This document shows, piece by piece, positions 1-41,300 of a DNA stretch of 64,000 bases. The position numbers and the translations under genes were made by a program. The stretch is from Blasia pusilla (Eukaryota), in assembly GCA_050084515.1 (NCBI GenBank), contig CM114271.1, positions 49,538,001 through 49,602,000 on the forward strand, read 5' to 3'. The first letter of the stretch is position 1. Every line of letters begins with the position of its first letter. The notes under the pieces are model-generated. The model did no database searches, was not told where the DNA came from, and saw only the letters and a program-made list of their open reading frames with translations.

Positions 1-662
1 GATGTGTATGCGTACGACAATTGTCACGACTGTTAGGATGGATCGGTGGGATCTAGCTGAGCGTCTGCATGAGTAGCGGAGGACACGCCTAGGAGGTCAA
101 GGATGACCTGTTGAGGCCCTGAGAAACCTGAGAGAGCAGGTTTCCCCTTCGTTTCGGCTCATTTGGAGCCATATAGAGAAATTTTCAATTTCATGTAAGT
201 TTATATATTAGGAATAGTTGACTTTCCACTTTGGGAAGTGACCCTTGACCCGCTACAGCAGGTCAAGAGCCAAGGATGTGACCAACGAGCATAGGTTACG
301 GTTGAGAGGGCTTGGGAGAGGGAAGGGGATATACCTCAAGGAGAGAGAGCTTGAGAGCTCATTCTCTCTTTGTTGAACCTCTTGGCATAAGGCGGCGGAG
401 CTATGGTCCCTTGCCTTGTGAGTGTAACCCAAGTCTATCATTAGGAGAGTGGGTTTGGTTTGACATGAGAGAGAGTGCACACCTTTGAGAGCTATGGTGT
501 GAGATGGTGTAGAAAGATATTGGATCTTTCTTTAATTGGAGATATTTTGGTACTTCTTGCCTCTGTGTATGGATGCCATGAGTTAGCATGGAATTGTGTG
601 TGTTTGTCTGTGTGTTTGATCACAGCAATGTATGTTGTGTAGTGATGTGTATGCGCACGACA
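1..662 (+). mobile_element. 3' terminal repeat block (end of B1, AT spacer, A2, B2) of a Ty3/Gypsy element nested in the pol of the next element
   Basis: ...GCGTACGACA(19)-AT-TGTCACG(22)...GCGCACGACA(662). Homologous along its length to 3536-4302. Sequence immediately after 662 reads QIHQFRRNYRSCFSFSMHDLG, the pre-RT pol of the host element. Confidence 0.8.
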
Positions 663-3360
663 CCAGATACATCAATTCCGTAGGAATTATAGGAGTTGTT
701 TTTCATTTAGCATGCATGATTTGGGTATGCTAAAGGGCACAAGGATCCATATTGAGTTGTCTAGCGACACGTTGATCTTCCGACGACCTTACAGGTACAA
801 TGATATGGAGAGGGCTCTGATTCAGAGTAAGAGCCAAGACTTGATTGGAGCAAGATTAGTGGAGATGTCACATGGAGAGTATGCATCTACCATTGTCATA
901 CCCGCCGAGAAGGATGTGCATGGCAACTGGACAGATACGTGGATGTGTGGAGACTACCAACCAATCAATCGGCAAACAAAGTCTGATAGGTATGTTATGT
1001 CCACTCCTGAGGAGATTTTTGATGCTATTGGGCATGCAAAGGTCTTTAGTTCATTGGATCTTTGAGCCAGAGACCATCAACTGCCTAGCAGATTGGAGGA
1101 CATGCAAAAGACGGCACTTTGGGCATTGATCCTCACAGGAAGGATTGCTTGTACCAGTGGCGTTTCTTACCATTTGTGTTAAAAAACGCTCTAGCTGAGT
1201 TTGAGAGGGTCATGGATAGGATCTTGGCGGATCTAGATTTTGCAAGGTGTTAAATTGATGACATTGTAGTCTTTAGCGCCGCGGTTAAGGAACATAAGTG
1301 TGGCGCTTGAGAAGCATGAGCGACATCTAGAAGAGGTGTTTTGACGATTGCAGTTACATGGGTCGAAGCTACATCCAGGCAAGTGTAAGTTCTTCTACTA
1401 CCAGATTTAGTACCTTGATCATATGATATACCGAGATGGCCTTGGTGTGCAGTAGACCAAGGTAAAGGCTATTTCATGAATTCCATGCCCTACAGATGTG
1501 AGTCGAGTTCGTACATTCATGGGATTGCCAAAATTCTATCAACCATACATCAAGGGTTTCAATTCAATTGCAAAGCCTCTAATCTTGTTGACCAAGGTGG
1601 ATGACAAGTGGCAGTGGGGGGATGAGCAGGAGAGAGCATTTCAACTACTCAAGGACAAGTTGACGTCCGCATCCATATTGAGGATCAATCAGGGGACGTC
1701 TTTTGCAGTTGCACATAAATTGGAGCATTTTGGGGCTTGCAGCGGTGCTCACCCACCATGACGATGATGATAGAGAGGTCGTGGTGGCTTACGCTAATCG
1801 ATTGAACAACATTGCACAGGCAAAGTATAGCTTGTATGCAGGTAAGTGCTTGGCTACAGTATGGGCTGTTGCGCATTTCAGGTGTTATTTATTCGACATA
1901 TGGCCAAGATATTCACGAGGATGGAGTAGTCTTGGAGTATGTGTGTATTGGCAGCGTCGCAAGCACAGCGGGTGCTAGAAAGTAGGATCGAATCTTAGAG
2001 CGAGCCAGACGGTTCCGGTGAGAGGGAACACAAGTGTTGCGAGTTTGGAAGGATGGTAGAGTACGTATAGTGCCTCATCCTTCATAGAGAGCACGGTTGG
2101 TGTGGCATGCCCACAAGGAGTTGGATCATTTTGGAGTGAAGTGGACGTACAGCTTGCTCCAGATACAGTATTGGTGGTGAGGCATGTAGATTGATCGATG
2201 TTCAACACATTGTTGTCCATGGTGTGTGATTAGGTCCGAGCATCGTTTAATGCTTCAACTCCAAAATTTCATCCACTTCTGATCATGGTTTTAGGTTATG
2301 GATGGAGTTTGGATTTTGCATGACCTTTACTTTTTATGGAGCGCCATAGTTGTTATGTGTTGGTGTTGGTCGAACACTTTTCGCAGTGGATAGAGTTGGT
2401 TGCTTTGTCTGACAAAGCAAATGAGAGAGTAGTATATGCATTCCTAGATAGAGTGTTAATTTTTTATGGCACATCAACTGAGGTGTTGACAGACCAAGGT
2501 ACGGAGTTTTGCGGGGAGTTTCAGGCCTTAAGTGATCAGGTGTTGATCAACCATCGCACCACTTGGCGAGATTTTCTTGAGCCGGATGGACTAGAAAAGA
2601 GGGTTGTGTAGACAATGAAGACTCGAAGAGAGGTTTACGCAAGTATGGATTGCAGAGAGGTCACCTAGAAGATTGGGACCTTCAGTTGTCATGGTTGGCG
2701 ATGGGATATAGATTCAACACGAAAGCCTCCCTAGCCTCTTTCTCACGGATTGTTGCTTTATGGCTGAGAGCCATATTTTCCTACTGCCATTTGTGGAGAT
2801 GTTGGTGAGGTGTTGAACCTTGATGGCCTTTATGTATGGATGCAAGTATTTTCTTAGAGGGATGAGTTGTTTCCGAGAGTGATGCCCATAGCGTCTGAGA
2901 ACTTGGCGATTGCACAACATCGGGATACGTTGAGGTATGTGACTATTCGGGAAAGGTGATTATCAACCTACTATCTGGAGGTTTCACTAGCTTGGGAGAC
3001 TATTTCTACTTGCAGCAGACGACACCCACGACGTGGGATATTACTACGAGGTGCACCATCTTGAGAGTGCATGAGGTTTTTCCGTCTAGTATTTTCTTAT
3101 TAGAGGGACGCGATGGTATGGTTTGGAAGGACCATGTGCGTAACTGTGCGCCATTTCACCTTCCTAACATTGGCAATATAGTTGATCTGAGCTTAGTAGT
3201 AGTTCCTACATGCTTGCGATATATATTGTGTGGTTCCGCCGGTGGTGCAACCACTATACTAGTATGTGATGGATGTTCAAGATGATGGCATATGGCATGT
3301 ATGATACCACCTCTCACTAGGGTTCTTGGGAGATGATGGATGTGCCCTAGATGTACCTAG
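663..3360 (+). pseudogene. Ty3/Gypsy pol pseudogene (RT, RNase H, integrase, C-terminal PHD finger)
   Basis: ORFs 712-1065, 1498-1761, 1703-1978, 2336-2611 and 2956-3285, broken by stops and frameshifts. Confidence 0.9.
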
Positions 3361-4302
3361 GTAGTTATAGATTCCGACTTGTGTCTGTGACATGGATGAA
3401 AAGAAGGCGACTAACGATGGGGCCATATGAGCACCTCGATATTTTGCTTAGCGTCTTAGAGATGTATGTCATGGTAGGTAGGGATTGATGGTTGTCCGGA
3501 GTTAGAGGGACCTAATCACCAACTACGGGAGCAATTGGAGATATTTTGGTACTTCTCGTCTCGTTGTGCGGATTTCATGAGTTAGCATGGGATCGTGTGT
3601 GTTTTTATGTGCATTCGATGACACTGATGTATGTTGTGTAATGATGTGTATGTGCACAATAATTGTCATGTATTTTAGGATAGATCGACGAGATCTAGTA
3701 AAGAGTATTCGCAAGTAGTGAAGGATAGCCTCAAGAGGTCGAGGACGACTTGCTAAGGCCACGTGTAACCTGAGAGAGCAGGTTTTCCCTTTGTTTCAAC
3801 TCATTTGGAGCCATATATAGAGACTCACTATTTTGGGTAAGTTTCCATCTTGAGTATAGTTGACTTTACACTTTTGGAAGTGACCCTTGACCCGCTACAG
3901 TAGGTCAAGAGGCAAGGAGGTGACCTACGAGCATAGGTTACTGTGGAGAAAGCTTGGGAGAGGGAAGGGGGTATATCTCCAAGAGATAGAGCTTGAGATC
4001 TCATTTTCTCTTTGTTGAACTCTTGGCATGAGGCAGCACTCCAATGATCCTCCTTGCCTTGTGTGTATAACCCAAGCCTCTCATTAGGAGAGTGGGTTTG
4101 GTTTAACATGAGAGAGAAAGAGAGAGAGTTGTGCATATTTGTGAGACCTTGTGATGGAGAGATCCACTTGATTTATTGGAGATATTTTGGTAGTTCTCAT
4201 CTCGATGTCTATATGCCATGAGTTAGCATGGGATTATGCGTGTTTGTATGTATTTTTGGTGACAACAATGTATGTTGTGTAGCAATGTGTATGCGTACGA
4301 CA
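663..4302 (+). mobile_element. Degenerate Ty3/Gypsy element, 3' part (RT-RNaseH-integrase-PHD plus B1-A2-B2 repeats)
   Basis: RT fragments (RRPYRY, MCGDYQPIN, FSSLDL, C*IDDI), RNase H, integrase (VEHFSQWIE, LTDQGTEF) and PHD remnant. Collinear with the element at 28636-38376. B1 ~3536-3661, A2 from 3664, B2 ends 4302. Confidence 0.9.
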
Positions 4303-6900
4303 GCAATAAGTACGAGACAACTAAATTATTGTCAAGTCTTGGACTGAATCAAAGTTCCATTTATGCTTGCCTTGATGGCCACGTGCTCTTTAGAGGAGAG
4401 CATGCAAATCGATCGAGTTGACTAGTATGTGGACAACAAAGGTATAGAAATGCGGGCAAGTCCATCCAGCCTACAAAGGAACTGCGCCATTTTGAAATCA
4501 TTCCTACGTTGAAATGGATATGTAGGAGCCCAACGATTTCAAAGTTGATGACTTAGATAGCCAAGAACAAGAGTACAGATGGCATGCAATGGCATGCAAC
4601 GGCACATTGGAGATTCATCGACCAAAGATGGCCAAAGTTTGCAAGTGAGACAAGGAACGTGCAAGTTGGCCTCTCAATTCATGGGGTGAATCCATTCGGA
4701 CACAAGAACAACGTATATTCTTGTTGGCCTATAACCTTGCTCAATTATAACCTCCCTCTGTGGTTAGCTACAAAGAGGTTTTTTTCTTATTGGTTTTGCT
4801 TATTGTGGGCCCACAATCTGCTCTTTCTAGCAATATAGTCGTTTGGATAGCTCCTGTTGTGGATGAGTTGAAGTGCTTGTGATACAAGGGCGTTTGGATC
4901 TATGATGTATTGCAACGAGTCGGTAGACTAAACCCATTCAGACTACAAGCCCAATTGGTATTGACTTTGGGAGATTATCCAACCCAGGGCATGATTTCAT
5001 GTCAGACCGCAAAGGGGTATTCGACTTGTACTGCATGTGGCCCCAATTTTACTAGTGAGCATTCCGGACCTCTGAAGAGCATAAAATACCTTGGACATCG
5101 GTGTTTCCTCCGACTAGATCACCCTTACATACATAGGGCATCACAAATAGTTCAATTCAACAACGCAAGAGAGCTTCGTAGTTCACCTCCAGGAGTCAGT
5201 AAAGAGGAGATTCTGGATTGGGGACACTAGAAGACCATGTACGACATGGAAAGAGGCACGGGTGAGGATTACCAACATGGAGTTGAAGGCCAAGATATGG
5301 AAGCTCCAAATGCTCAATCGGATCCGGGCTTGAGATATGGTGTGAAATGACATAGCATATTTGATGTGGAGTTGGACTACTGGCGGATAATCTAAGTCAC
5401 CCATCCACTCATAAGCATAGTCTATTCTTCTGAACACCATATGCTTACAAGAATTGAAGCTAGTGGTTTATCATCCATGCATTCTCATGATTCTCATATG
5501 TGGTGCAACAAGAATTGGACCCTAGCAAACACAATCTAGACATAATGCACATTGAGAAAAATGTATGTGAGAACCTATTGAGGTTCCTTTCTGGGGAGAA
5601 AGACATAGCAACAGTGCGATTGGATTTCCAATAGAGGAGAATACGATCTCAATTGTGGTTGAAGGATGATCACTACATACCAAATGTGGTATTGAAATAC
5701 CAGGCACCTTATGTTTGCACAAATACAAAGTGGAAAATGTTTCTTTCTAAGCTTCATTCTTTGAAAGTTCTGACCGACTATGCATGTACCCTCAAAAAGT
5801 ATGTAAGAAACAAGAAACTTGGTAGTATGAAGACACACGATGAGCATGTGCTTATGCAATAGATTCTGCTTGTATGCCTAAGGGGATTTATGTAGAAGCC
5901 AGTTTGCAATGCAATCATGCGATTGTGCAAGGTGTTTGGTCGTATATGTGTGAAATTTTGGGATTCTGAAGGCTTGGACAAGCTTAAAGATGATGTGGCA
6001 TAATTGTTGTGCGATTTGGAGATCCATTTTCCTCCCACTTTCTTTGATGTGATGAATCATCTCATTATCCATGTTGTGGAAGAGCTTGGAGAGTATGGGC
6101 TTTTTTATACTAGGTGGATATTCCCACTGGAGCATTTTATGAAAGTCTTGAAAGACCAGGTTCTAACAAGATACATGCTTGAGGTCAGCATGCAATATGT
6201 TACATTTCTCATGAAAATTTGGATATTTGACAAATTATTTGGCGGGATTTGAACATGTGAAGGCCAGGATATGGCAAGCTGAGGAAGATGAAGGAGTGAT
6301 AAGTGAAGTTCTTTAAGGCAAAGGTTCCCCATTGCAATTCTCAAGACATATTTAATTTGGCAGATGGCTCATGAATATTTGTTGCAAAACACTAGTATAA
6401 TGCAACCATGGTGGTGGTGAGTAAACCTTCCCTCACTCAAGCCTACATGATGTTGCATTTATTTGGGTAATTATCTTGTTTTAATGTCGTTGCTCATCAG
6501 ATCTCGATGAGCTAATCATGGCATGACCTCTATGGAAATATGATATGGAGAAAAGTGCACATATTGAGGACGGTGTTGGGGGCTTTCCATCATTCACATA
6601 ATGGATTCAAGGGGCAATCCGAGAGCATTTTGTACTACACCCAAATAAGTACCGGGATGTCTACCTTACTTCATTGTAGGTCCGACCTTACTAGCAAAGT
6701 GACGGTTTCTTACTAGCAAACTTAGGCAAATGAAGCCTAAGTGGTCTGAACCTTTTGTATTCCCTAGTCAAGTTGAACATGCCTTCTTCCTAGATGTAGA
6801 GGATTCGCCCAGATGGCGTCTAGTGTGCCACAAGCAGACGAGGAATTGTAGGGTATCAAGAAATACATTGGAGTTCAGTTTAGATGGCCATGGGGCTTTC
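4303..6900 (+). pseudogene. CACTA/En-Spm Tnp2-type transposase pseudogene, interrupted upstream by the Gypsy element
   Basis: IYACLDGHVLFRGEHA, WRFIDQRWPKFASETRNVQVGLS..GVNPFG..YSCWPITLLNYNLP (Transposase_21-like), LDIMHIEKN, LEIHFPPTFFDVMNHLIIH (DUF4218-like), EPFVFPSQVEHAFF (DUF4216-like). Confidence 0.88.
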
Positions 6901-26400: not shown

Positions 26401-28635
26401 GAAATTGTAGCAAAATTGGAAAAAACTTAGCTAGCAATTGGAAACCCAATGAGGAAGTTTATGCAAACATTCAAAAGCATACACGAAGCAATTTTTTTTG
26501 CTTTATTTAACATTTATGAACAAAGGTGATTTACATTTATCATCTTGGTCTTTTCCATTCATAACTAGCAAAAATCTCCTTGCCCATGTCTATGGTTTTG
26601 GTTGCGATGGTGGAAATGAAAAAATCCTCATCCCATCGCAAACCAAAAAATTGTGTCTGCCCTCTACGTACTCCCACTTGGCATTCCCATCATTACAAGG
26701 ACCATATGATTGAATGTACCCACCTATGTTATTGCAACGTATGAAGTCATCGTCTATATATCGTCGATGGCGAGAGTTGCACATAGTAGTAGCATGTAAG
26801 AACAAGAGATACTTTGAGAATGACGAAGCTGCATGGACAAGCTCCAGTTAATCCTTCCATGTAGTATGTAAGTATATGGGACCAAAGTACGAGAATAAGA
26901 TGAGCTAGTCATCCACATCACATCCCTTGAAAAATACTATTCTATTGAGCACAAACACCCCAATACTAGTTTTAAACCTAAAGTAGATTATTTATCTATG
27001 TATCTGATACCCCATGATTCTATCGACACACCAAATGGTAGATGGGCATCCTAATGGGATCGCATTGCACTCAATGTAGTACTCTATTGAATAATCTCTA
27101 AATTGCAATTGCACGGGTTCATGTATATTAGGTACCATGCGTAAATCCTTTTGGATCTAGACCCAAGATCAAGTACCTTTGGAAAGGGATCTATAAATCA
27201 AGGGTTGATGTGAGATGCTCACTCAAACAGGGTTAATCAAACTCAATCTCAAAGGGAGGGAGGGAGTGGGACAGAGATTCGAGAACCAACTTTATAGTAT
27301 CACGCATAAGTGTACATATATCCACCCATGCATGTTGTCATGAAGGGTTGCATCGAGGGGTGTGTTAGATGATTTATTTATTTTTACATTCTTGTGTGAT
27401 TGTGCAAACATACTAGGAAGGGCACATGCACGCACCTGCATGTAGCCATATATTCAGCCTAGTGCCTAAAAATTGCAAAAAATCAAACCAAAAAAAGGAA
27501 GTCGTCTAAGCATTATTTTTTATGTTAATTTTTTCCTTTCTACTATGAACTAGAGGGGGTATTGGGGGAGATCCTTCATGGATTAGATACGAGAATCCAC
27601 CACATGTGGACAATTATACCCTTTTTTCAAGGGCCATAGCTCAAATGGGGGTTCCTTTGATCCAAAGTCAGAGGGAGGAGGTCGAAAAGACGTTCCATAT
27701 TTGTGTCAAGTGTTGTGGATCACAATCTCAAATCCACAACTATATGTATGGAGGCACATTTTCATGTGTGGCAGGAGAAGTATCACCTTCACTAATCTAT
27801 GGATGTTCCTAAAGTTGATGTTCCACCATATCGGGGGACATAGCGAGGGTGGGTTTGGAGATAGCTAATGGTGGGTTAGCTACAACCAACGAGGCAATGA
27901 CAACACCCCCAATGGAGCACAGGCATATAAGAGCTCGGACCATGAGGAGCCTCATGTTAGAAACTTCAAGATTCCCAACTACCGATAAGGCAAAGAAGTT
28001 ATCTCACCTCATCTACATGCATGTGTGTGAGTAGCATATGTTTGTTAATAATAAGTGGCTTGATACGACCCCCATGTATCAATAAACATCTAGAACTTCA
28101 TTATTGCAGAGTTCTAGAAAGGCGTAGAAATATCTATGGAGTGATCTTGAGGTACACTTCCGATCAATGTCATAGGGAGTGGGCACCAATTACAGATCCT
28201 TGTAGAGACCAGGTTGACATGCAACAATTGGCAAAGGCGCAATGTTTGCATCTAAAGGTGCAAGCGAGACACTTCTTCAACCAAGGGGGAGTAGATGTAT
28301 TTTGATATACATTGAGAGTATGTCTTACCTTATAGGAAAAATAGAATTTACAAGGTAGTTCATGTTATATACCGTTTAATTACTATGATGTGTCTTTAAG
28401 GTTTAACTAACTATGTGGGTGGATTGTGTAGTTCAAAGTATGGAGAGTATCTGACTCCCTAGATCATGTATGATGTGGCAAGTTTGGAAGATCCGAGATA
28501 ATGTCTTTGCTAACCAAGATGTTATAGCATCCATGGTTAATTACTAGCACTAGAATATTCATGTTATAGTCTGATGTTTAGGTTACTTTAAGGTTGTTGA
28601 AACTACTAATAGTTGTTGGTGCCTATTGTGCAACA

Positions 28636-28769
28636 TATCGTGCGCATACATATCGCTACACAACATACATCGCTGGTCACATCTACACCACACAACACCG
28701 ATCTTCCCCACATACGGGTCGATCCACACATGTACAAAAATCAACTCATACATATACGTGGAGATCACA
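28636..28769 (-). repeat. Terminal repeat segment B2
   Basis: Direct repeat of 29249-29382, about 4 mismatches in ~133 bp. Confidence 0.95.
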
Positions 28770-28772
28770 AAA

Positions 28773-29246
28773 AAAAATAAAGAGTAGTAAAAATGGCACA
28801 CCCGGCCTAAAACTCCACTCCTCAATCTACATCGGCATATCGAGCCTCGTCCACCTTGTGCTATCAAGGAATCCGGACGCTAGCACCCTAGTCCTATCTC
28901 ACACACATACAAGGGAGGTGCTCCAACGGCCCAACATGTTGGCTTAGGAAAGCCATCTTCCTCTCTTATGCAGGGTTGGGAAGAGCCAAAAGGCTCTTCC
29001 CCTAAAGATAGCCCTCCCCTTGGTAACATGCGCGCATAGGTTACCAGGGGCGAGAGACCTGGTCAACAAGTCACCCGGTTGTAAAAATCCTCAAAATGAA
29101 AGTTGTCAGAAATGACGTTCCTGACACAATGGACCTATCCTCAACCTCATATGACACCGTGGGACAAAGTTACACTCAACATAGTCCGCTGGCTCCTGCG
29201 CCCTATCCATGATAGATCTCGGCCTATCGGCTATTCAGATGTGACA
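28773..29246 (-). repeat. Terminal repeat segment A2
   Basis: Direct repeat of 37897-38376. Begins TGTCACA on the - strand. Confidence 0.95.
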
Positions 29247-29248
29247 GC

Positions 29249-29384
29249 TATCGTGCGCATACATATCGCTACACAACATACATCGCTAGTCACATCTACA
29301 CCACACAACACCGATCTTCCCTACATACGGGTCTATCCACACATGTACAAAAATCAACTCATACATATACATGGAGATCACACA
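29249..29384 (-). repeat. Terminal repeat segment B1
   Basis: Begins TGTGTG just after the PPT and is joined to A2 through a 2-nt GC spacer (29247-29248). Confidence 0.95.
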
Positions 29385-29385
29385 A

Positions 29386-29396
29386 CCGCCCCCCTA
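29386..29396 (-). promoter_or_regulatory. Polypurine tract (plus-strand primer site)
   Basis: TAGGGGGGCGG, 1 nt upstream of the TG that starts B1 and ~70 nt after the pol stop. Homologous ACGGGAGCA precedes B1 at ~3525. Confidence 0.7.
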
Positions 29397-29462
29397 GCTG
29401 GCAGTTGGATCCCCCCAACTCCAGATAGAAAATATCACATCTCTCTGACATGATCTACTACC

Positions 29463-30776
29463 CTAGACACATCTCTGACACATCCATCGTCCCATGGGAA
29501 CCACATCAAGAGGGGGGGTCAGACATGACATATGCCACCCTCGAGAACAACCATCACATACCAACATGGTGGCTGCACCCCTCACAAATCCGCACAACAT
29601 ACACCTCAAGCCTGCAGGTACCATTGCCAAGCTTGGATCCACCGTCCCATCTACGTTTGGAAGATGACATGACGCACAATTGCGCACATGATCCTTCCAA
29701 ACCATACCATCCCGTCCCTCCAACATGAGGACTCCGGTCGGTAATACCTCGCGCACACGTAGGATTGTGCACCCTATAGTGACATCTAGCGTCGTGGGTG
29801 CCACCTGCTGTAAATACACGTAATCTCCAGGATGAAACCTCATAATCCTTGGACGATAACCTCCTCCATGAATGGTCACGTACCTCAATGTATCTCTATG
29901 TTGGGCAATAGCTAAGTTCTCAAAGGCCATAGGCATAACTCTACGAAAAACTTATGCCCTCTAAGAACATGCTTGTACCCACACATCTGGATCATCAAGA
30001 TCTAACACCTCCGCCAAGTCATGTCGAATCGCTGCAGGTAAATCTGGCTCTCTCCCAAAGAGCAAAAAGTACGGTAAAAATGACGCCAAGGATGCATGCC
30101 GACTAAAGCAATAACCCATAGCCAACCATGGCAACTGTAGGTCCCACTCCCTCAACTGTCCCCACTGCAAGCCATACTTGCGCAATCCTCTCTTCACCGT
30201 TTGTACCACTCTCTCCGCCAACCCATCCGCCTCACGATGATCTCTGGACGTGGTGCGGTGATCTATCAATGCCTGATCACACAAGGCCTGAAACTCTCCC
30301 CTGAACTCGGTACCATGGTCAGTCAACACCTCCGCCCGTGCACCAAAGTGACTAAGCACACGATCTAGAAACGCATAAGCTTTTCTCTCGCTCGCCTTGT
30401 CTGGTATTGCCACAAACTCTATCCACTTGGAGAAATGTTCCACCATGACCAACACGTACCTATGATGACGTCCCGTCAATGGCAAAGGTCCCGCAAAGTC
30501 TAAACTCAACCGATAACCTAAACCCATAATCGGCAAAGGATGTAACTGCGGAGTGGGAGCATTGAAGGATGCTCACACTCTGTCACATACCATACATCTG
30601 GCCACAAACTCTTGTACCCCAGTATGCATGCCGCGCCACCAATACTGAACCTGGAGTAAGCTGTAAGTATGCTTTACTCCGAAATGTCCCAACTCCTCAT
30701 GGGCATGTCGCAGTACACGTGCTCGCTGGGAAGGATGAGGTACCATTCGTATCCTACCATCTCCCCATACCCGCAA
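29463..30776 (-). pseudogene. DDE integrase (HHCC, core) with C-terminal PHD finger
   Basis: HAHEELGHFG...CMVC; SLDF, LTDHG, LAER catalytic triad; terminal CMLC-x11-CDGC-x4-HMSC-x14-CQRC (C4HC3). Confidence 0.93.
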
Positions 30777-30821
30777 AATGTGAGTCCCCTCCCACCTGAA
30801 CCTAGGATCCGATCCCGCTCC

Positions 30822-32539
30822 CTAGCACTCAATGTACTCGCCAATGCGCAAGAACTCCACAACCTCCACGTCGTCATGGATATCACGACCACCTGCCGCC
30901 TCCTCACTAACCTCCGGATCTAAAGACTCATTATCCAACCCCACCACTGGAGTCATCACCTGTGGTTGACCTGCCATAGTCAACCAACAAAGATAGGCAG
31001 ATGCATGCCAACTGGGCACCATCTCCTCATCACTCTCTCCGTGCCATCGAGCTCTTGTGTCGTCTCTCTGACTCGGACATGGGTTACGACTCAACCCATC
31101 CGCATCCTGGTTCAGCCGACCTGGCCTATGAACCACCTCAAACTCATACTCTTGTAGTAATAGAGCCCACTTGGCAAGCTTTTCCGTAAGCTTTTCGGAC
31201 TCCATCAACCACCTCAATGGCTGATGATCAGTGATAAGTGTGAAAGGGTTGCCAAATAAATAGCACGTGAAATGTGCCACGGCCCACACTGCAGCCAAGC
31301 ACTCTCCCTCATAGGAGCTGTACTTTGCCTCTGCAATGTTGTTTGATCGACTCGCGTAAGCCACAACGAACTCCCTCTCCTCGTCATCCCTCTGAGTAAG
31401 CACTGCTCCTAGACCCAACATGCTCCAATCCGTATGTAACTGGAATGGGCGACCCCTAACCGGTCTCTGTAAAATGGGTGAGGACGTCAACCTGTCCTTG
31501 AGCTCATGAAATGCTCGCTCCTGATCATCTCCCCACAACCACACCTGATCAAGTCTCGTCAACAAGGTCAAAGACTTTGCGATCGCACTAAAACCCTTCA
31601 CATACCGTCGATAGAAGTTCGCCAGTCCAAGAAATGCTCGGACTCGACTCACATCCAGTAGGGCGTGGAATCGCAATAGCCTCTACCTCCAAATGCTGAA
31701 CGCCTAACCCACTCGGGTATATGGTGTGTCCCAAGTACTCAATATGCTCTTGAAAGAATGCACTTGCTGGATGTAACTTCAGTCCATGTAATCGAAATCG
31801 CTGAAACACCTCCTCCAAGTGTCGCTCATGCTCCTCAACCGTGGAATCAAGATAAGAATATCATCTATGTAACATCATTACAAAAATCCAAGCCAGCCGT
31901 AATCCTATCCATCACTCTCTGAAACTCTGCAGGTGCGTTCTTCAACCCAAATGGTAAGAACCGCCACTGATACAAGCAATCTCTCCCGAACCGATCTATC
32001 CCCCAGAATGTTGTCTTCTCCATGTCCTCCAACCTGATAGGAAGCTGATGATAGCCGGCACGGAGATCTAAAGTACTGAAGATCTTTGCATGCCCTACCG
32101 CATCAAATATCTCCTCACGAGTAGGCATGGCGTACCGATCTAACCTCGTCTGTCAGTTGATAGGACGGTAATCTCCACACATCCGCCTATCCGTCCAATT
32201 GCCATACATATCCTTCTTCGTCGGCATGACTGTGGCAGATGCATACTCCCCATGTGATAACTCCACAAGTCCTGCCTCCAACAAGTCCTGACTCCTGCTC
32301 TCAATCAAGGCTCGCTCCATATCAGAATACCTGTAGGGTCGACGAAAGATGGGCGTATCACTAGCCAACTCAATCCGTATCCTGGGACCCTTCAGCGTAC
32401 CCAAGTCTCTCATACTGAAGGCAAAACAACTGACATGCCTTCTCAGAAACCTATGAACTCGCCGTCGCTCTCCTCCTATCAACTTGAGACCTATCACAGG
32501 CTCCCAAGTCTCCATCGTGACCTTACTCGGAGAGGACAC
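30822..32539 (-). pseudogene. Reverse transcriptase and RNase H (frameshifted)
   Basis: RRPYRYS, RMCGDYRPIN, FSTLDLRAGYHQ, LPFGLKNAP, CYIDDI (shifted frame); RNase H LHTDWSMLGLGAVL, YSSYEGECLA, ITDHQPL. Confidence 0.95.
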
Positions 32540-32829
32540 AACCTCCGGCTTTGGTTGCTATGTAGCAACCCTAGCCACCTCCGCAACAACCACTCCACTT
32601 TGACCTCCTACACCATGCTCCACTTCCGAAAAATGAACATGTGCTACTCTAGCCGCCTTTGCACTCTCTGCTTGAATGACGTCCCAGGAAGTCCATGGGT
32701 GCCTATCTCTCCTCGTCTCGTCCCCAACCAATGCCTATACAGACCCTGTAGGCAATGGTCCAACTCGTGGACGTGACGGCATGGATGACACTCGCATCCG
32801 TCTTTGCTCAGCCATACCTAGGATGACTA

Positions 32830-33832
32830 TCCATGTGACAGTTGAGGTCCATTGCCTGCCCCAACACCTGTCTCCGGGATGCCTCAGTCATCCCTGGTAC
32901 CGCCGTAGTACCGGTAGTGAACCCCATGGCGCGTTCGCGCTCATCTGTTGTAGGCTCCTCCAATGCTCTGGTCACCTCATCCCAAATCATGCTTGGCCCT
33001 CCCTGACGAAAGGCATGGGATGCTGGGAAGCTGGGAAGCTCACCAACGTAGGTAAGGCTGCCCTCAACTCCCCCACCCTAATGGCCATGGCCAACGGTGG
33101 TCTATCATCCCGTGTCACCACCTAAGATTGACACCCTGAGCCCAAAATAGCATCCACTGTGAGATGTGGTGCTCTTTGGGCCCCACCGTATGCTCGACTC
33201 AGTACCTTTGATGGTATCAGGTTCGTCCACCACAGTCGTTGACGATGGGCATGTGACCCAACTCTCGCTGCATCTAACAACACATGAGGTCCCAACCAGG
33301 ACTTCACCTGATGTACACTCGTCATCACACGTGCACGAGTGTCTCCCAACAATGGCACGTTCTCCAAAATGTACGATGGAGAACATATCTGACTCTCCTG
33401 CAAGTGTCGTACTACTTGCAGCATCTCCCAAAACATCCCTGAACTCGGATCCTGCAATTCAAATACTCGTCCAACTGATGAATGACCCTGAAATGGCCAT
33501 CCAAAAATCACCAAATGAATGGTGCCAACTTTATCCAGATCCTGCGCCCCCACCAAAGAGATGTCGGCAGGTAGCGTATGCTGATATCCCCGTACTGCAG
33601 ATACCGGCAACAACTCATGATACCTCTGGACCAATCTCGCCACGTGACGTAATGATACTCGCCGTGCGGTCTCATCTCTCTCCACATAAAGATACCGATG
33701 CACCCGTATGCCCGCCTGCAATAGTGCAGCCAATCCGGTGCTAATCCCTCGGAAGAGATCTAACACCCTTACACCCTCCTCTCGGCACTGCCACACAACG
33801 GGTGTGGTATTCAATGGGGTCAACGTCTCCAC
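32830..33832 (-). pseudogene. DNMT3-like C5 cytosine DNA methyltransferase domain within pol
   Basis: Motif I RVLDLFRGISTG, II YLYVE, IV LVIFGWPFQ (PCQ with Cys to Phe), VI ILENV, VIII HAHRQRLWWTNL, IX ERERAMGF, X RRQVLGQAMD. Broken by TAG at 33122-33124 and an 8-bp duplication (GCTGGGAA x2, 33022-33037). Confidence 0.93.
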
Positions 33833-33991
33833 TCCAAGAGTCCGATTGCCACGTGACTCTCGCTGCTATGGGATAAAAACATGACTCCATGCCTGCCTCA
33901 CGAGGTCGTCGGCACTCCTCTGTAGCTCTCAAGTCGTACCCCACAATGGTGAAGAGGCCTCGCCAACATGGGAAGAGACACCCGCCATGGC

Positions 33992-34737
33992 CTATCTCTC
34001 CGTGGGACTATCCGCTACTGGGACATCCTCCGCATGTGCCTTCCCCGCCAACAACTCTCCTAGCCAGCTAACACTACATGTGAAAGCTGCCAACGTGGTC
34101 ACAGACTCGCCTCGTGATCGACCACCTTGTCCCGCAAACTGCACGGGTAATTGACTCATCCGGCCGTCACCTGACCGCCATCCTGGCTGATAAGCAACGG
34201 TCTTCTCCCAGAAGTCTAGGATGAATCCTAGGGGATATAACACTGTACTCCCCACCAACACATCGTACGACTCAACTGGTGTCGTAATCGCGCGCAGCGC
34301 ACCATAGCACTATCTATCCGTCGATGCTCTAGCCTGGACTCGACAACAATCTCTTGTCGAGTCATATATTGAGTGGGTGACACCCCCCCAATCGAGGTCT
34401 GTATCTGGAAGGGACAAGGCTCAATGTCGGCCTTCCGTAACCCCAACGCTAAACACGCCGCCTTCCCTAACATCAAGGGTTGCGCTCCCGAATCAAGTAG
34501 GACGCGCTGCGGGTGGTATACTGTCCTCATCGGACTAACCAAGAAAAATACTCCATCTCGGTTATCCAGTAACACTACTCCAGGTGTCACCACTGCTCGC
34601 TCTATGGCCGGTCGAGCTGGCATAACTACTAACTTTGCCGCCGCCTCATGCCATGATTGTGTGGGGAACGTCTCGATTACCGACTCTGAGGGTAAGTCCA
34701 CCACCTCCTCAACTACATATGAACAAGAAGCAGTCAT
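33992..34737 (-). pseudogene. Aspartic protease region
   Basis: VLLDSGAQ active-site motif; C-terminal DVLVGSTVLYPLGFILDFW after a frameshift. Confidence 0.88.
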
Positions 34738-34899
34738 CTCTCAACGCTCACACAATGTGGCGGCTAACCGGAACACCTCAGCTGGTCCAACTCCCAACGT
34801 CGCCAACTCTATGGCGGAAAATAGTGGAGTCTGACTCACTCTGGTGGCCACCTCCAACACTATGGTCGACACTGACTCCACTCGAGCCAGCATAGGAGT

Positions 34900-36626
34900 T
34901 GTCACTCCAACTCCTCGTGATGTCGACGTAGGTGCCTGAGCTGAGGCACCGCTGGTCGTCGAGGAACCATCGATGGTGTGTGTAGTGCCTCCGACAATGT
35001 GAACGACTGTGGAACCCTGGCCTGCCGCCCATCGGTCCCCTCTGGTGGGTCAATCTCAACTCCACCTCTCGATGGCTCGGTGCCTCTCGCAGCACCCCGA
35101 GTCACCATTGCAGCTGCCTCAACCTGGGCTGCACTACACATAAATCCCATACTAGCGAGATCCTCACCCTGGTCAGGGTAAGAGGTAGAAGTTGGAGTCA
35201 CACTAGCTGCTCGCAGCTCCGTGCCTTCCCTAAGCTGCATCATCGACATGGCAGCAATCCTCTGCTCCAACGGATCGATGCGTGAAAGGAGTGCTAGCTC
35301 TGGTGCTCCTGCTCCATCTCCTCTGGCTGGTGGTGGTCCTCTACCACCACGTCTAGGAAGAACTCCCCGACCTCCTCCAAGACGACCGCCCCCAGGCCCT
35401 CGGCCTACCTCTGGACGTGCCCCTCGGCGAAGGTCAAAACATCTATCCCTAGTGTGACCATATCGGTGGCAATGGTCACACTAGTGCTGTGGTGGGCCAT
35501 CCTCTTTGGTCATGAGCAATCGGAGGCGTTGGTGGTCCTCTCCCATGTTGTGGGCAGTTTCTCTGCCTATGGGCCCCTCCACACATCCAACAAGACCACA
35601 TCGGTCCCTGTTGGGCAACATATGTAGGTACGGGTCGTTGCCTCATAGGCTCACGGTACCCGCCCTGCTCTCTAGGCACACTAGCCCGCTCTTGTGGTAC
35701 TGGTGCTTGTTGTGGCACCTGTGGGGTCATCGTCGCTCGTGGACCCGTCGACTCTCGAGAAAATCCAGCGGGCACTACCTGCTCCTCACTCATGTTGAGC
35801 TCAATACGCTCAGACAACTCAAAGACCACCTTCAATGTAGGCTTCGCTGTGTGAATCAACACCGCATCTCGGACTCTCCTCCGTAGTTCTCAGTCCATAA
35901 TCTCGTACCAATACTAGATTGACTATGCCTCAGTCACTCCAAACGTAGCAATGATCAACCTCCTCATGCGTGTGAATGCCTCTCTCAGACTCTCACCCGA
36001 TTGTTGCTAAAAATCCTGTAGACTCTTCACTTTTTTGTGCACGCATGGGAGCTCTTCCCCAACCGCCGAAGAACTCCTTTGTGGGGCTGGTGGGTGGCCC
36101 TCTACCGAGAGGTCTCGCCACATCGCTTTGTCTCTCACCGCCCTCCTCTCCATCTAGTCTCCGGGCTGATGGTGTGGGTCTCTCTCCTTCCACAATCCCA
36201 TCATATGCCTCGCGACCACTAGTGGACACATACCCTGTAGCCCAATACATCCCTCCAGGCATCGATCTCTACTGAATATAGTGATCAAAACTCCATGTAG
36301 TCATCCATCGCAGGACCCTCCAAGTGCTGGAACAACCCCTTCCATGCCATGAAAGGGTTGAACCGTGTCGGGGTCTGTATCTCTTGGAAGTCGCACCATG
36401 TGTCGAACTCTTGGATAAAATCATCTAAGTCAATGGTGCCCACTGCACCCGAGAAACGACGCATGCCCCGATGGCCCATGTCGCTCATCTCCTGCCAAGT
36501 ACTACGATCTCTGTCTGCGATCTCATCACCAGACCCAGTGTCCAGTGATGACGATCCAGCCACGGATGGATGTCGAGGTAGCTCCTCACTGGTAACCCCT
36601 CGATATCTCACTCCACTCCGTGTCAC
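34900..36626 (-). pseudogene. gag with two zinc knuckles
   Basis: FSGAVGTIDLDDFIQEFDTW...HLEGPA retrotransposon gag; CWMCGGAHRQRNC and CDHCHRYGHTRDRC knuckles; RGG-rich tract. True start may lie further upstream. Confidence 0.85.
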
Positions 36627-37882
36627 ACCACTACTACTGCTCGCACTACCCCGTTCTTCCGAACCCTGGAAGAATGCAGTGATGACAAACCCTATCTCAC
36701 CCGCTCAAGCACTCAGACTCACCGCGAGTCTCCCATACTCCTCACTAGCTTACCTATGCTAACATCAATCTCGTGATGTCATACCCGGCCTCACGCACAC
36801 TCAACACTCGGGCTCACCATGAGCCTCCCAATTGACTCACCTAACCTAGCGATACTCTCTCGGGTCATACACGCGACCCCTACTCGGCAACCGCCGTATA
36901 TCCGCCAACATGCTACACATGAACATAATCTACACTCGTCATCATCACTGCACCCACCTAGCACCAGCAACTACCCGATACCCAACACTCTCAATCACAC
37001 ACGACAAGTGCCGGAAAAGGGACTCGAATGGGTAACCTGATCAGACCCTCCAACTTGCTGCACCATCAACATGCACTCCTCCACGTGATATGACAATCTC
37101 CGCAACACAACACTCTCCTTGACCAACACGTCGATCCTCCCGTCAATAGATGCGGACAACCCGTCGGCATCATGCGCACTGCCCCTCCATCGTCAACTCT
37201 CGCAACGCCCTGTCGCGCCCCAAAAACATCATGTCACGCAAACATCTCCGTCCATCCCCACACGCGGCATGTAACCTGACTCACCGTGGTCTGGCTCCAC
37301 TCCAACCACGTATACCTTGTCCAACCACGTGAACATGACCCCGACCACATCCAGATTGTCAACGATGTCTGCCCGACTGACCACGTCTGTCCATGCCCTA
37401 CCACGTTCGCCGGACCGACCTCGTCCGTCCTACCACATTGGAGGGGGGGTAATCTGGCCCGCGGCCCTATGCGGCCCCTTGGGCCCTAAATGCCGGGAGG
37501 GGGCCTCCCCAACTTTTGGGGAGGGTGCAATAAATTGGGGGGGTGCACGCCATCGCGGCCCGCTGTCCGCTCGTCCGCCCGTCCGCGCCCGCCGACCTAA
37601 ACACCCATCAGCGCCCCCAGTGGCTACAAGCCGTAACTCTCTTTTCTTCTCTCTCTAGACACCCTCACTCGCGTACACCCGACGCCCACTCCGTACTACA
37701 CTCTACCGCTGTCCCCAATCCTTGTGCACCAACAAAATCTGAGAAAAACGGATAGCGCTTCTGCCCACGGCCTTCCAAACAGAAAAATGACAAACACCCA
37801 CAACACACGCGTCTCCAAGGGCTCTCCACCAAGGCAACTGGCCTGCCTACCTGCAAACAAGGAATTCCCACCATCCCCCTGA

Positions 37883-37893
37883 CATCTTTCTCA
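37883..37893 (-). promoter_or_regulatory. Putative self-priming primer-binding site (11 nt)
   Basis: TGAGAAAGATG directly follows the ...TTTTACA end of A1 and is the exact complement of 38071-38061, which lies 31 nt downstream of TATATAA. Confidence 0.75.
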
Positions 37894-38376
37894 TGTAAAA
37901 ATAAAGAGTAGTAAAAATGGCACACCCGGCCTAAAACTCCACTCCTCAATCTACATCGGCATATCGAGCCTCGTCCACCTTGTGCTATCAAGGAATCCGG
38001 ACCCTAGCACCCTAGTCCTATCTCACACACATACAAGGGAGGTGCTCCATCAGCCCAACATGAGAAAGATGGCTTGGGAAAGCCATCTTCCTCTCTTATA
38101 TAGGGTTGGGAAGAGCCAAAAGGTTCTTCCCCTAAAAATAGCCCTCCCCTTGGTAACCTGCGCGCATAGGTTACCAGGGGCGGGTGACCTCGTCAACAAG
38201 TCACCCGGCCGTAAAAGACGTCAACATGAAAGTTGTCAAAAATGACGTTCTTGACACAATAGACCTATCCTCAACCTCATCTGACATCGTGGGACAAAGT
38301 TACACTCAAGATAGTCCGTTGGCTCCTACGCCCTATCCACGATAGATCTCGGCCTATCGGCCACTCAAATGTGACA
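37894..38376 (-). repeat. 5' terminal repeat segment A1 (TG...CA, 483 bp)
   Basis: Direct repeat of A2 with TGTCACA...TTTTACA termini. Not preceded or followed by a B copy. Confidence 0.95.
38096..38102 (-). promoter_or_regulatory. TATA box of the retrotransposon promoter
   Basis: CCCTATATAAGAG on the - strand in A1; CCCTGCATAAGAG at the same position in A2. Confidence 0.7.
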
Positions 38377-41300
38377 AACATGACATGTCTCATCCAAATG
38401 ATTGAGTGCTTGCGTCACTTGGGTTGGATCCAATTGTGGAATTGGACCATTTAGATGAGAATGACGCCTCCTACAATGAGGAGGAGGAGGAAGAAGAAAA
38501 GGAATAATATGATGCAAACGAACTCAAGAATCGCCTTGCTGAGCAAATAGTTACGCTTAGGCATAGCATAAGCTCATCCTCGAGTAATGGAGCAAGTGGG
38601 CCCATTTGTAGTAGACACCACATGGGTTTTGGTAGTATCAGTAATAGGGGTATAATTGGTGTGTAGTTACATGCTCTAGTAGTGTTCAAAGGCACTTCTT
38701 CAAGTGCTGTACCTTCTATGAGTCTAGCATAACCTTGTCCACATGGAACATTAGGTACATGGCCCCAAAGTAGATAGAATAAGAACTAGTGTAATTTTTT
38801 TTAATTTTATGTCTAGTTTGTAACTCATTTGTGAGTATCAAACATACCTCATTTGCAAGTATGCAACTACATTTTGAGTACCGTTCAAGTCATTGCAAAT
38901 GTATTGCAACTAAGTTGTGGGTAGTTGCGATTGAGTTTCGAGTGTAGTAAACTGGAAGTTTAGAGTTGTAAGGAAGTTGCAATGTGTGGTTCAAAATCTT
39001 AGCCATATGATATCTTTCGGTTGATCTATGATATCTTGCGGTTGCTTAACCACTATATTGTGACTAAATTTGAGCTTTTGGCACTTGCAAGATAGTTGTG
39101 AATGTGGTAGTGTTAGGATTAGCCAATGTCCTTAATAGAGTAGATTGGTACTAATAATGGAGGTCTTTATTTTGGAAATTGAGATTTCTAAGCAAGCTTC
39201 AATTTTCTATTCATTTAGGCATGTTGAGATTTATAAAAATCCATTATCTATAGTAAAGGGGCATAGTTGCAAAAAAAGACTTGTTTCTCAATGGAGGAGA
39301 TGAGGAAATTGGGAGAGGAAATCATCATCTCAAAGATCTCAATGGAAAATGAGACAAAATAATGCCTTTTGCAAAGACAGTCATAATGATTATGTAACTC
39401 TGTGTCACTACATTGTATCAATCTACTTTATGCCACCACATGTATCCAAATTATCTTCAATATAATATCAATAACTACCACATCAAAATCCTACATTTTA
39501 TATAATGAGAGAATTGTCCATGGATTTGTGCATCTCTCGACATGTGGGTGCTAAGTTGCTCTACCAATCAATAATGAATATAATATTATGTTCACATTGT
39601 GAGTGACTATCTTTCATCGCCTACAATAGAACGTGATAGAAGCATCTCAAGTAAATATAGAATCTAATAACTCTAACAATATATGGAACTAAATATATAG
39701 GGATAAGCCTATTCACAACTATATTGTAGTATCACAGATAAATTATATGAGAGATAATCCAAAAAAAGAGGTTTGAGTATCTATTCATGAGCATATCACC
39801 TTTCCAATGCAAGGGTGGACATGAGAAAAACTTTAAGCTAATATTTCCATTGGATATGATGCCTAACTCTAAACTCTACCACAAAATAAACTTTCCTCAA
39901 AGATGACCACCCTATTGATCTTAGAGAGCTAGAGAGAGAAAATGTTGAATAATTTCCCTACCCTTTATTATATTAGCGTCTACATGCGCTCTTAAACAAG
40001 ACTATAAGAACACCAATTTTGACAAATATGGTGAATTACAAAATTTATAGGTTTCTAACTCACTTGAAAAATAGAATTTCCTTAAAGTTGTGCTTCTAGG
40101 TAAAATTATGACTTAAGTTCATTTAATTTGAATCAAAATCTTTCCCACAACAACAAGTCCAATTCTTTATTCCACTCATTTTCATTTGCAAGTAATTGAG
40201 TCTCTTTTTTCCAAAAAGGATTAGAGTAGGAAGCTAAAATGTTCCACAATAGATTAGTTTATTTTTCAATTCTTCTCAATATCTCGTGCGTACGATGGCC
40301 CAAGATTCATTAAATGACAAAATTTGGCAAAAATGACAAATTTCCAAAGACCTTCTTTTAGTCCTTCTTATAGTCATATGTACTTGCATTAATAGAAGGA
40401 AAAATGGCTTGTGTTATGATTCGTGAGAAAAAAAGTTGTTGTTGCCAATTGGATGGTCATTCCTTGGAAAACCCTACATCATGAAGTTCTCACGAGGATG
40501 GGGGTCATCAATCAAACTTTGTGCCATTAAAATATTGATATATAATAGTTGGAGCATGAAATTAAATGACATCATCGAGACTTGCTATGCATGGTCACAT
40601 ATATGTTGGAAAAGTGAAGAACAAGATTGCCTTCACCTCAATCGTATTTGAATGTAGACTGAAGGTTATGTGTTTAGGTTCTGTGAAAATGGAACTTAAT
40701 TTATAATTCTCTCTAAGCCTTCGTCATCTAGTCGTGGTGTCAAGGCTCCAATAGGCTAACTCAAAGGGACCCAATTAGAACTTGAGGTCTTATTCGGCCT
40801 TGATCTTCCTAAGGAGGAATAATATAATATGGTTAGTTGATGTGGGTAAAGTCCTCATGGTCGTGGCAAAGCAAAGTTTGTAGGAACTAAATTATTCTAT
40901 GACTTGTATAGAATGGTAGTTGTTGAAGGTTGAATACGGTGAGATATCTCAAACACCTCCGTGGACGGATTAGAGAAAGGATACACTATGTGTAAATCCT
41001 AAAATCTTTTGGCTTGACAACAACTCATACCGTCAGAATTAGATCTTAAGAGCCAATTGAAAATCATTCGGAACTCTATTTCCAATTTTCTCTAACCCAT
41101 CGTCTCAGAAGGAGTTGTTTCACCTCTAGAGCAACTCCTATCACCATAATACAATCTTAAGAGCCAATTGAAAAACATTAAGAACTCTAGTTCCACATGA
41201 GCTTCGACCAATAACCTATCCTCAAAGTATTTGGAAGTTCCTCTTGGCGGTAGCCCTTCAATTGCCCACAGAAGGAGTTGTTCGAGCTCCATGTCACTTA

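Follow-up and report, generated by a model that had tools for sequence, protein, structure and literature searches.

The stretch analyzed here, hereafter the window, comprises 64,000 nt of the Blasia pusilla genome (GCA_050084515.1, contig CM114271.1, 49,538,001-49,602,000 of the forward strand). On its minus strand, from 38376 to 28636, lies a copy, now decayed, of a bryophyte retrotransposon whose domains assign it to the Ty3/gypsy type and to the Gypsy-DNMT3 kind, the order being gag, protease (PR), DNMT3, reverse transcriptase (RT), RNase H (RH), integrase and PHD finger. The repeats of this element are split and permuted: one segment, A, stands alone upstream of the genes, and B, A and B follow one another downstream, so that the integrated form may be written A-int-B.NN.A|B, with NN denoting two spacer nucleotides and the vertical stroke a join of the U5 end to the U3 start of the long terminal repeat (LTR). 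The inserted DNA holds this U5-U3 join downstream of the genes, and its insertion duplicates 4 bp of the target. The layout is a trait of the family, extending to a clade, and not an accident of one copy. The best fit to these observations, which is unproven and to which we assign a probability of roughly 0.55, would be an intermediate with joined LTRs that is opened at a palindrome inside the LTR rather than at its tips.

Repeat order, integrated ends and recurrence of the layout

A direct-repeat search covering window positions 27000-40000 returned three pairs: 28940-29239 with 38070-38369 (91% identity), 28773-28938 with 37897-38062 (98%), and 28627-28772 with 29240-29385 (94%). The B at 28627-28772, the A at 28773-29239 and the B at 29240-29385 are contiguous on the plus strand, and the other A stands at 37897-38369. 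Read on the minus strand and combined with alignment, this gives A1, the coding region, a polypurine tract (PPT), B1, the dinucleotide GC, A2 and B2, with a 4-bp duplication outside (Table 1). A first-pass annotation, made from the letters alone, had proposed exactly this order together with the duplication (AACA, or TGTT on the element strand), and its coordinates proved correct. The two A copies are identical in 443 of 480 aligned columns (92.3%) and the two B copies in 132 of 137 (96.4%). A greater likeness of B1 to B2 than of A1 to A2 is seen in all five complete elements available (the window copy and survey loci L029, L053, L068 and L078); in L053, for example, the values are 95.7% and about 88%, and the differences are mostly transitions. 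This may reflect composition, conversion, or A copies that were already non-identical at insertion. When A1 and A2 are compared upstream and downstream of the presumed transcript start, no consistent trend appears: likeness is lower upstream in two of five elements, higher in two and equal in one.

The A2/B2 join of the window copy had been described as imprecise, with about 5 nt lost, and comparison with other copies in DNA run X1 agrees: the window copy has surplus T's and is without about GTTGT. The run-X1 and run-X3 matches listed cover 24 of 2236 loose ends and 15 of 62 joints, and among them the family consensus in X1 passes from ..CTTTATTTTT directly to GTTGTGTGATC. The same X1 listing contains the joint 29385>37896 in 3 contigs, the joint 29386>37897 in 5, and a loose end at 29386 in 37. 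Contigs matching the window element number 134,873 in X1 and 9,637 in X3 (depth not being a copy number), and the family is very abundant in the source genome. One bin of the 5' untranslated region, 37322-37668, has a depth of 0.61 and 29.9 in the two DNA runs, compared with thousands elsewhere; it is private to the window copy, either as an insertion or as a strongly diverged stretch.

The integrated ends are the start of A and the end of B, as the first-pass annotation had maintained, each of them one half of the internal CA-NN-TG palindrome. They form short inverted repeats, TGTC(A/G)(T/C)G...C(A/G)(C/T)GACA, and therefore bear the TG...CA signature of DDE integrases. Duplications of 4 bp flank all five complete A-int-B-A-B copies: TGTT in the window, AAGG in L029, AATC in L053, CATA in L068 (the L025 locus) and CATA in L078, where the final B2 base is C or absent.

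To see how general this arrangement is, we turn to a metagenome survey in which the integrase/PHD alignment served as the query. The best 80 loci of 600 matched stretches (576 confirmed) were classed wherever the sequence reached the end of B1 and continued for 12 bases or more beyond it, and duplicates were removed by their 120-nt flank. The arrangement PPT-B.NN.A|B-flank was found in 21 loci, 16 of them distinct, and PPT-B-flank, the 3' end of an A-int-B copy, in 28, of which 24 are distinct and one (L061) is ambiguous, leaving about 23. Eleven loci with a truncated or rearranged B.A... (L013/16, L042/50, L051/54, L055, L056/57, L069, L077) were not counted, nor were 20 in which the contig ends too early or B is unrecognizable. 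The layout is common to at least three diverged families: the two represented in the window and those labelled M and N. Where the 5' end is visible (19 loci with 15 distinct flanks), the flank directly abuts TGTCATGACC or TGTCAAGAAT, the start of A; in none of the 15 does B precede A as it would in a conventional B+A LTR, and none of the 34 loci that have no pair of B segments shows an LTR-type repeat shared by its upstream and its downstream side. Conventional LTR copies do not occur in the surveyed sample. The concern, voiced in the first-pass annotation, that most copies might carry ordinary LTRs or that the duplication might not be reproduced was thus not borne out, the duplication recurring in 4 of 4 other complete A-int-B-A-B copies. 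The A-int-B by-products that it had predicted are represented by the roughly 23 distinct loci just described, and perfect 4-bp duplications flank three of the six complete ones (L007 TGTT, L008 ACTA, L018 TACA); the others are imperfect, with three matching bases of four in L002 and L049 and two of four in L028.

A second, old family is present in the window itself, on the plus strand at 1-4304, which is where the relative with a GACA-AT-TGTC junction cited in the first-pass annotation was located. It is 71-73% identical to the window element in the nucleotide sequence of pol. Twice it shows the block B'-AT-A'-B', ending each time in ..ACGACA followed by unrelated sequence; the B'/A' junction is the perfect palindrome GACA-AT-TGTC, and its B' copies are all 76-83% alike. 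At about 662-678 a complete B'-AT-A'-B' end gives way to RT-coding sequence belonging to that family, the window beginning within an element, and this part (1-700) may represent same-orientation nesting, or a large deletion that starts in the 3' repeat block of a copy lying upstream.

Several observations on the B segment and on individual loci may be recorded here. The last 40-45 nt or so of B (..ATGTATGTTGT..GCACGACA) are conserved in the window's two families and in family M (window 29249-29290, 28636-28677, 624-661, 3626-3660 and 4259-4304; L001-L068), unlike A, which is not alignable between families past its first bases. Integrase ends usually need few bases, and the conserved B end is far longer. 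In L013 (3361-3878, the same locus as L016) A2 runs to its normal U5 end, after which come 2 nt and an inverted partial A (positions 1-190) in place of B2; it is a rearranged copy or an aberrant product of complementary DNA (cDNA). L042 (1542-1817) and L050 (3322-3602) are deletion derivatives in which the end of the PHD region is followed directly by the 3' half of A and then by B; the PPT and B1 are missing, as is the first half of A2.

Signals for reverse transcription

Within A1, a putative self-primer segment starts 31 nt downstream of the first base of the TATA box TATATAAG, and the primer-binding site (PBS) that directly follows A1 is its perfect complement over 14 nt. As a control, none of 2000 random 25-nt windows of the element showed a perfect complement of at least 12 nt in A1. 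The transcript start itself is predicted at the self-primer site, about 30 nt past the TATA box, and the RNA reads show no start in A. Family M possesses a different PBS (ACTCAAAGAACT..), also adjoining A1, which is complementary to a site 29-33 nt past the family-M TATA box; the complement is perfect over 9-17 nt in 11 of 16 loci. A third PBS/primer sequence pair, of 13 nt, occurs in L078. Complementarity between the PBS and the presumed start is also seen in L029, L074, L002, L007 and other loci, the sequences differing across the three families. Since the PBS sequence differs among families while the complementarity is kept, this covariation argues for self-priming of the kind known from Tf1.

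At the other end of the coding region a conserved, G-rich PPT (..CTAGGGGGGCG; ..AGCTAGGGGGGCG in the window) lies immediately 5' of B1, in most family-M loci about 178 nt past the end of the PHD region. That the PPT abuts B1 and the PBS abuts the end of A1 had already been read from the window copy, and both placements hold. Because the PBS adjoins A1 and the PPT adjoins B1, U5 would end at the end of A and U3 would start at the start of B, and the LTR made by reverse transcription would be B.NN.A. One tip of this predicted LTR reads AGTTGTGG.. or GTTGTGTG.., the opposite tip ..CATTTTC or ..TTATTTTT, and the two are not inverted repeats. The first-pass annotation had described the reverse-transcribed LTR as B+A with TG...CA ends; the B+A composition agrees with the positions of PBS and PPT, but the terminal CA does not survive, because the ACA past A1 is part of the PBS, which leaves the predicted LTR without it. 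Together these signals strongly imply that reverse transcription is canonical, with self-priming in the manner of Tf1 from the PBS next to A1 and with the plus strand begun at the PPT next to B1. They imply equally strongly that the LTRs of the cDNA have the form B.NN.A, with tips that are not integrase-type ends.

It is these tips that are found joined in the integrated copies. In both families the A|B join consists of the U5 end, which otherwise adjoins the PBS, and the U3 start, which otherwise adjoins the PPT. Eleven of 14 distinct family-M joins read TTTT(C/T)-A(G/A)-TT(G/A)T(G/A)G, and two (L011/L015 and L063) hold one additional PPT-side letter. The remaining one, in L032 (about 2665-2700), has some 20 nt missing at the U5 end; it contains CCGAG, in which CGAG are letters normally found beside the PPT. 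Such extra PPT-side letters or U5 deletions, seen in 3 of the 14, are what would be expected of end-joined cDNA tips, and the L032 join resembles tips that were joined imprecisely. At the family-M join, one to three letters (A, or AGT in L053) are common to the beginnings of the PBS and of U3; at the join of the window family none are.

RNA reads from two raw-read runs with the same species label provide a limited view of transcription. At a likeness of at least 90%, 788 and 789 read mates matched the element, the first mate mostly on the plus strand, an orientation that in most stranded libraries is sense to the element. Most of these reads are 90-95% alike and so derive from other copies. 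Loose ends at 29241 and 28638, among the matches listed, mark some reads that run across B.NN.A in related subfamilies.

A possible route of integration and its rivals

The following sequence of events would account for the integrated forms. The DDE integrase would recognize the internal CA-NN-TG palindrome as two abutted ends. Before that, the cDNA would have to have its U5 end joined to the U3 start, either in a two-LTR circle or in a form with tandem LTRs, and this would create the A|B join. At the palindrome of the LTR upstream of the genes, integrase would then cut 3' of CA on both strands, leaving recessed CA-3'OH ends with 2-nt overhangs, and A-int-B.NN.A|B would be inserted. The A-int-B copies might arise from the same cut on a one-LTR form, from linear cDNA cut at both of its palindromes, or by later recombination between B1 and B2. 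As they possess no 3' R, they are expected to be dead on arrival.

A number of points weigh against this proposal. We infer the intermediate from integrated copies alone. A two-LTR circle would contain two identical palindromes, so that random choice between them predicts A|B.A-int-B as often as A-int-B.A|B, and yet this mirror product was found at none of the 15 distinct 5' ends. The asymmetry needs either an intermediate with a built-in asymmetry or a rapid collapse of A-B-A by A-A recombination; collapse into A-int-B would fit the finding of about 23 A-int-B loci and 16 A-int-B-A-B loci. The near-constancy of the A|B join in family M (11 of 14) also fits a join that is inherited through read-through RNA. 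All the copies examined are old, with repeat identities of 81-96%, and their frames are broken. The survey was anchored on the PHD region, and solo A|B copies lie outside its reach. Finally, the RNA reads are few and largely belong to other copies, and no transcript boundary is clear from them in either A or B. On the minus strand of L060 (581-899) we noted an A|B block in opposite orientation, with no recognizable B in front of it and an A start that is not definable; this may be a solo A|B.

The joined tips need not have passed through a ligated circle. RT might make A|B by switching from the end of the U5 template to a U3 start, which would yield linear cDNA with tandem LTRs on the 3' side only; use of the outermost sites would then give A-int-B.A|B, and use of the sites nearest the genes A-int-B. 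This scheme, which we regard as unlikely but deserving of attention, would explain both the invariable position of A|B downstream of the genes (A|B.A at 0 of 15 distinct 5' ends) and the frequency of A-int-B copies, and the 1-3 common letters at the family-M join could act as microhomology. However, the window family has no such letters at its join, and since either 3' end of a completed cDNA could make such a switch, the asymmetry is not automatically explained. Less probable again is a DIRS-like logic, in which genomic RNA would run from A1 into B2, A2|B2 would be inherited, and the outer parts would be regenerated from the internal B1.A2; the resulting full-length cDNA, circular or linear, with an A start and a B end, would be inserted by the DDE integrase. 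The layout is the same as in elements of the Ngaro/PAT/TOC1 type, a published figure legend applies a DIRS-type description to KnitGypsy-Dnmt3 (PMC5890265), the A|B join is almost invariant within family M, and the RNA reads across B.NN.A described above would suit such a template. Nonetheless, the covarying PBS at A1 and the conserved PPT at B1 are what canonical two-jump synthesis needs, and this synthesis would skip B2; nor is there a priming site past B2. The inherited join is therefore a weaker rival of the model in which cDNA tips are joined.

Two further explanations were considered and rejected. It might be argued that the layout is secondary, a conventional LTR element having been rearranged after insertion by nesting, tandem insertion or deletion, or that it is an artefact of assembly, since the window copy is old and broken and the relative at 1-4304 is truncated or nested. 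The chance of this is negligible, for it is contradicted by base-identical junctions that recur in 16 distinct loci from independent contigs, across three or more diverged families and on other contigs of two DNA runs, with 4-bp duplications outside A1 and B2 in five of five copies and no conventional copy found in the survey. Nor do we give appreciable weight to the idea that a tyrosine recombinase acts in trans from true DIRS-type elements while the DDE integrase is idle, even though it is in tyrosine-recombinase elements that split direct repeats are otherwise found. Duplications of 4 bp and inverted termini of the TG...CA type characterize DDE integration, and no part of the polyprotein is better conserved than the integrase/PHD region (about 80% between liverworts, compared with 52-67% for DNMT). 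A Pfam scan of 20 open reading frames (ORFs) of at least 82 aa, on both strands, detected the DDE integrase (Integrase_H2C2, E 6.3e-17; rve, E 2.5e-12), as the first-pass annotation had it, and a tyrosine recombinase (Phage_integrase) domain in none of the 20.

Coding content, known elements and significance

The pol order RT-RNaseH-H2C2-rve of Ty3/gypsy elements is present on the minus strand (Table 1), with the protease placed by eye only. The gag region was without a match in the Pfam scan, and its assignment depends on motifs read by eye. PF00145 sits between PR and RT, so that a methyltransferase lies within the Gypsy pol polyprotein; in relatives, single proteins join DNMT to RT and RNase H (P0011) or to rve (the Sphagnum protein P0025). 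Compared with PDB sequences, all 29 matches of the methyltransferase are to DNMT3A/B/C. In a protein search it is 52-67% identical to polyproteins of Marchantia polymorpha, Calypogeia fissa and Sphagnum, and there are no Klebsormidium sequences among 25 protein matches to this part. The integrase C-terminus with its PHD finger is about 80% identical to liverwort proteins (204 matches). Frames are broken in the window copy and in the relatives examined. Just downstream of the old relative, an ORF fragment at 4883-5230 (plus strand) matches Transposase_21 (tnp2, CACTA/En-Spm type; E 1e-14).

Table 1. Positions of repeats, signals and coding regions in the window, in the order in which the element is read, followed by the old relative.
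Feature	Position	Strand	Evidence or description
5' copy of 4-bp target-site duplication	38377..38380	-	TGTT on element strand (AACA on plus strand); repeated at 28632-28635
A1	37897..38376	-	480 nt, begins TGTCAC; repeat search and alignment
TATA box in A1	38102-38095	-	TATATAAG
Putative transcript start and self-primer segment in A1	38071-38058	-	
Putative PBS for self-priming	37883..37896	-	14 nt directly 3' of A1; perfect reverse complement of 38071-38058
gag region, several broken frames	34902..36704	-	two CCHC zinc knuckles by eye, ORFs 35476-35889 and 34902-35480
Probable aspartic protease	34228..34740	-	LLDSGA motif by eye; no match in Pfam scan
DNMT3-type C5 cytosine methyltransferase domain, two broken ORFs	32808..33865	-	PF00145, E 3.6e-6
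RT and RNase H, broken frames	30822..32557	-	RVT_1, E 4e-11; RT_RNaseH, E 3.8e-34
DDE integrase	29961..30821	-	H2C2 zinc finger 30573-30821 and catalytic core 29961-30572, stop codon between
Integrase C-terminal region, PHD finger at end	29463..29951	-	PF00628, E 3.8e-10
Conserved PPT region	29386..29425	-	G-rich, ..AGCTAGGGGGGCG, adjoining B1
B1	29249..29385	-	137 nt, end CACGATA; U3 start of predicted LTR
GC spacer	29247..29248	-	internal junction CACGATA-GC-TGTCACA (abutted integrase-type ends); GACA-NN-TGTC in relatives
A2	28773..29246	-	474 nt, 6-nt deletion inside self-primer segment
B2	28636..28772	-	137 nt; A2/B2 join is U5 end and U3 start, about 5 nt lost
3' copy of 4-bp target-site duplication	28632..28635	-	TGTT
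Old relative family	1..4304	+	B' (end, 1-19)-AT-A' (22-531)-B' (532-661), RT-coding from about 678
Old relative, 3' part	to 4304	+	PPT-B' (3531-3660)-AT-A' (3663-4171)-B' (4172-4304)

Comparison with known systems places the element between several of them. Like other Ty3/gypsy elements it has the expected pol order, a PBS beside U5, a PPT beside U3 and a target duplication of 4 bp, inside the 4-6 bp range of the group, but in place of identical TG...CA LTRs at both ends it has A only at the 5' side and B.NN.A|B at the 3' side. The A1-int-B1-A2-B2 order is identical to that of Ngaro, PAT, TOC1 and kangaroo (the DIRS order); these encode a tyrosine recombinase, whereas the window element has instead a DDE integrase with an H2C2 finger, and 4-bp duplications. 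Tyrosine-recombinase elements of the DIRS type are not known to make target-site duplications. In the circles and tandem dimers of IS3/IS30-type elements, a DDE enzyme acts on ends abutted with a spacer of 2-3 nt. Those elements are bacterial DNA transposons without reverse transcription, and any likeness to the window element would be one of mechanism only.

Within the literature covered by our search, which leaves supplements and subscription journals to one side, split direct repeats are associated with tyrosine-recombinase elements. An important precedent is KnitGypsy-Dnmt3 of Klebsormidium nitens, for which the legend of Fig. 4c in de Mendoza et al. 2018 (PMC5890265) gives a DIRS repeat structure combined with a Gypsy domain composition. 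The suggestion in the first-pass annotation that the layout might be undescribed does not stand in view of that legend. The two elements share a Dnmt3-type methyltransferase inside a Gypsy pol polyprotein and A-coding-B-A-B repeats, a likeness drawn from the published description; they differ in host, which here is a bryophyte, with the closest proteins in Marchantia, Calypogeia and Sphagnum. In its main text that paper gives no mechanism for the layout and is silent on target duplications, a CA-NN-TG palindrome, PBS and PPT positions, a PHD finger and A-int-B copies. The bryophyte element adds to a kind already in print, and its novelty is below what had been assumed. A 2026 preprint, in the part consulted, merely mentions streptophyte Gypsy-DNMT3, and we did not find the terms KnitGypsy or Gypsy-DNMT3 in the literature searched beyond these two sources. 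Within the same bounds we found no mechanism for a split-repeat layout with a DDE integrase, and no description of the duplications, palindrome, self-priming PBS or A-int-B class of Gypsy-DNMT3 elements. As a whole, the interpretation given in the first-pass annotation is partly supported, and the integration pathway that the layout would imply remains undescribed and testable.

As for self-priming, in elements of the Tf1/sushi type (in plants, the Tcn1 clade) the PBS directly past U5 pairs with the beginning of the element's own transcript and not with a tRNA, an arrangement that the window element would match if its transcript starts at the presumed site; they have ordinary LTRs and chromodomains, unlike the window element. 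In the main text of the plant LTR-retrotransposon survey of Neumann et al. 2019 (PMC6317226), self-priming is predicted for the Tcn1 and TAR clades only, and the words Marchantia, methyltransferase and PHD do not occur. Precedent for the proposed cutting step comes from the integrases of foamy virus (PMC1180852) and HIV-1 (PMC1905944), which, according to the text consulted in these reports, cut a palindromic LTR-LTR junction. A retroviral-type integrase, an internal palindrome of abutted LTR ends and 3'-processed ends would be common to both cases, although for the window element these steps are deduced. In retroviruses the palindrome is formed when the tips of the cDNA are joined; in the window element it lies inside the predicted LTR, and the joined tips (A|B) are not of the integrase type. 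A palindrome in this position would make the integrated copy circularly permuted.

As the repeats and signals read, the ends joined by what is an ordinary DDE integrase must be internal to the repeat predicted to be made by reverse transcription. We advance only tentatively, and with rather less confidence than the route proposed above, the broader notion that a clade of streptophyte Ty3/gypsy elements has moved its integrase ends from the LTR tips to an internal CA-NN-TG palindrome and integrates obligatorily by way of cDNA with joined LTRs. LTR finders that seek two identical terminal repeats should overlook or mis-annotate such elements, and the combination of a DNMT3 domain with a PHD finger is of interest for the epigenetic interplay of transposon and host. 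If the proposed cycle is correct, a retroviral-type integrase would use an internal palindrome as its normal substrate, and circular or tandem-LTR cDNA, usually seen as a dead end, would be a productive intermediate. Integrase would open the joined cDNA in the manner of a restriction enzyme, providing a DDE counterpart of the DIRS/Ngaro cycle. This would bear on whether integrases act on LTR-LTR junctions in vivo, and on the origin of the DIRS-type split-repeat layout, which would now be paired with a different enzyme of integration.

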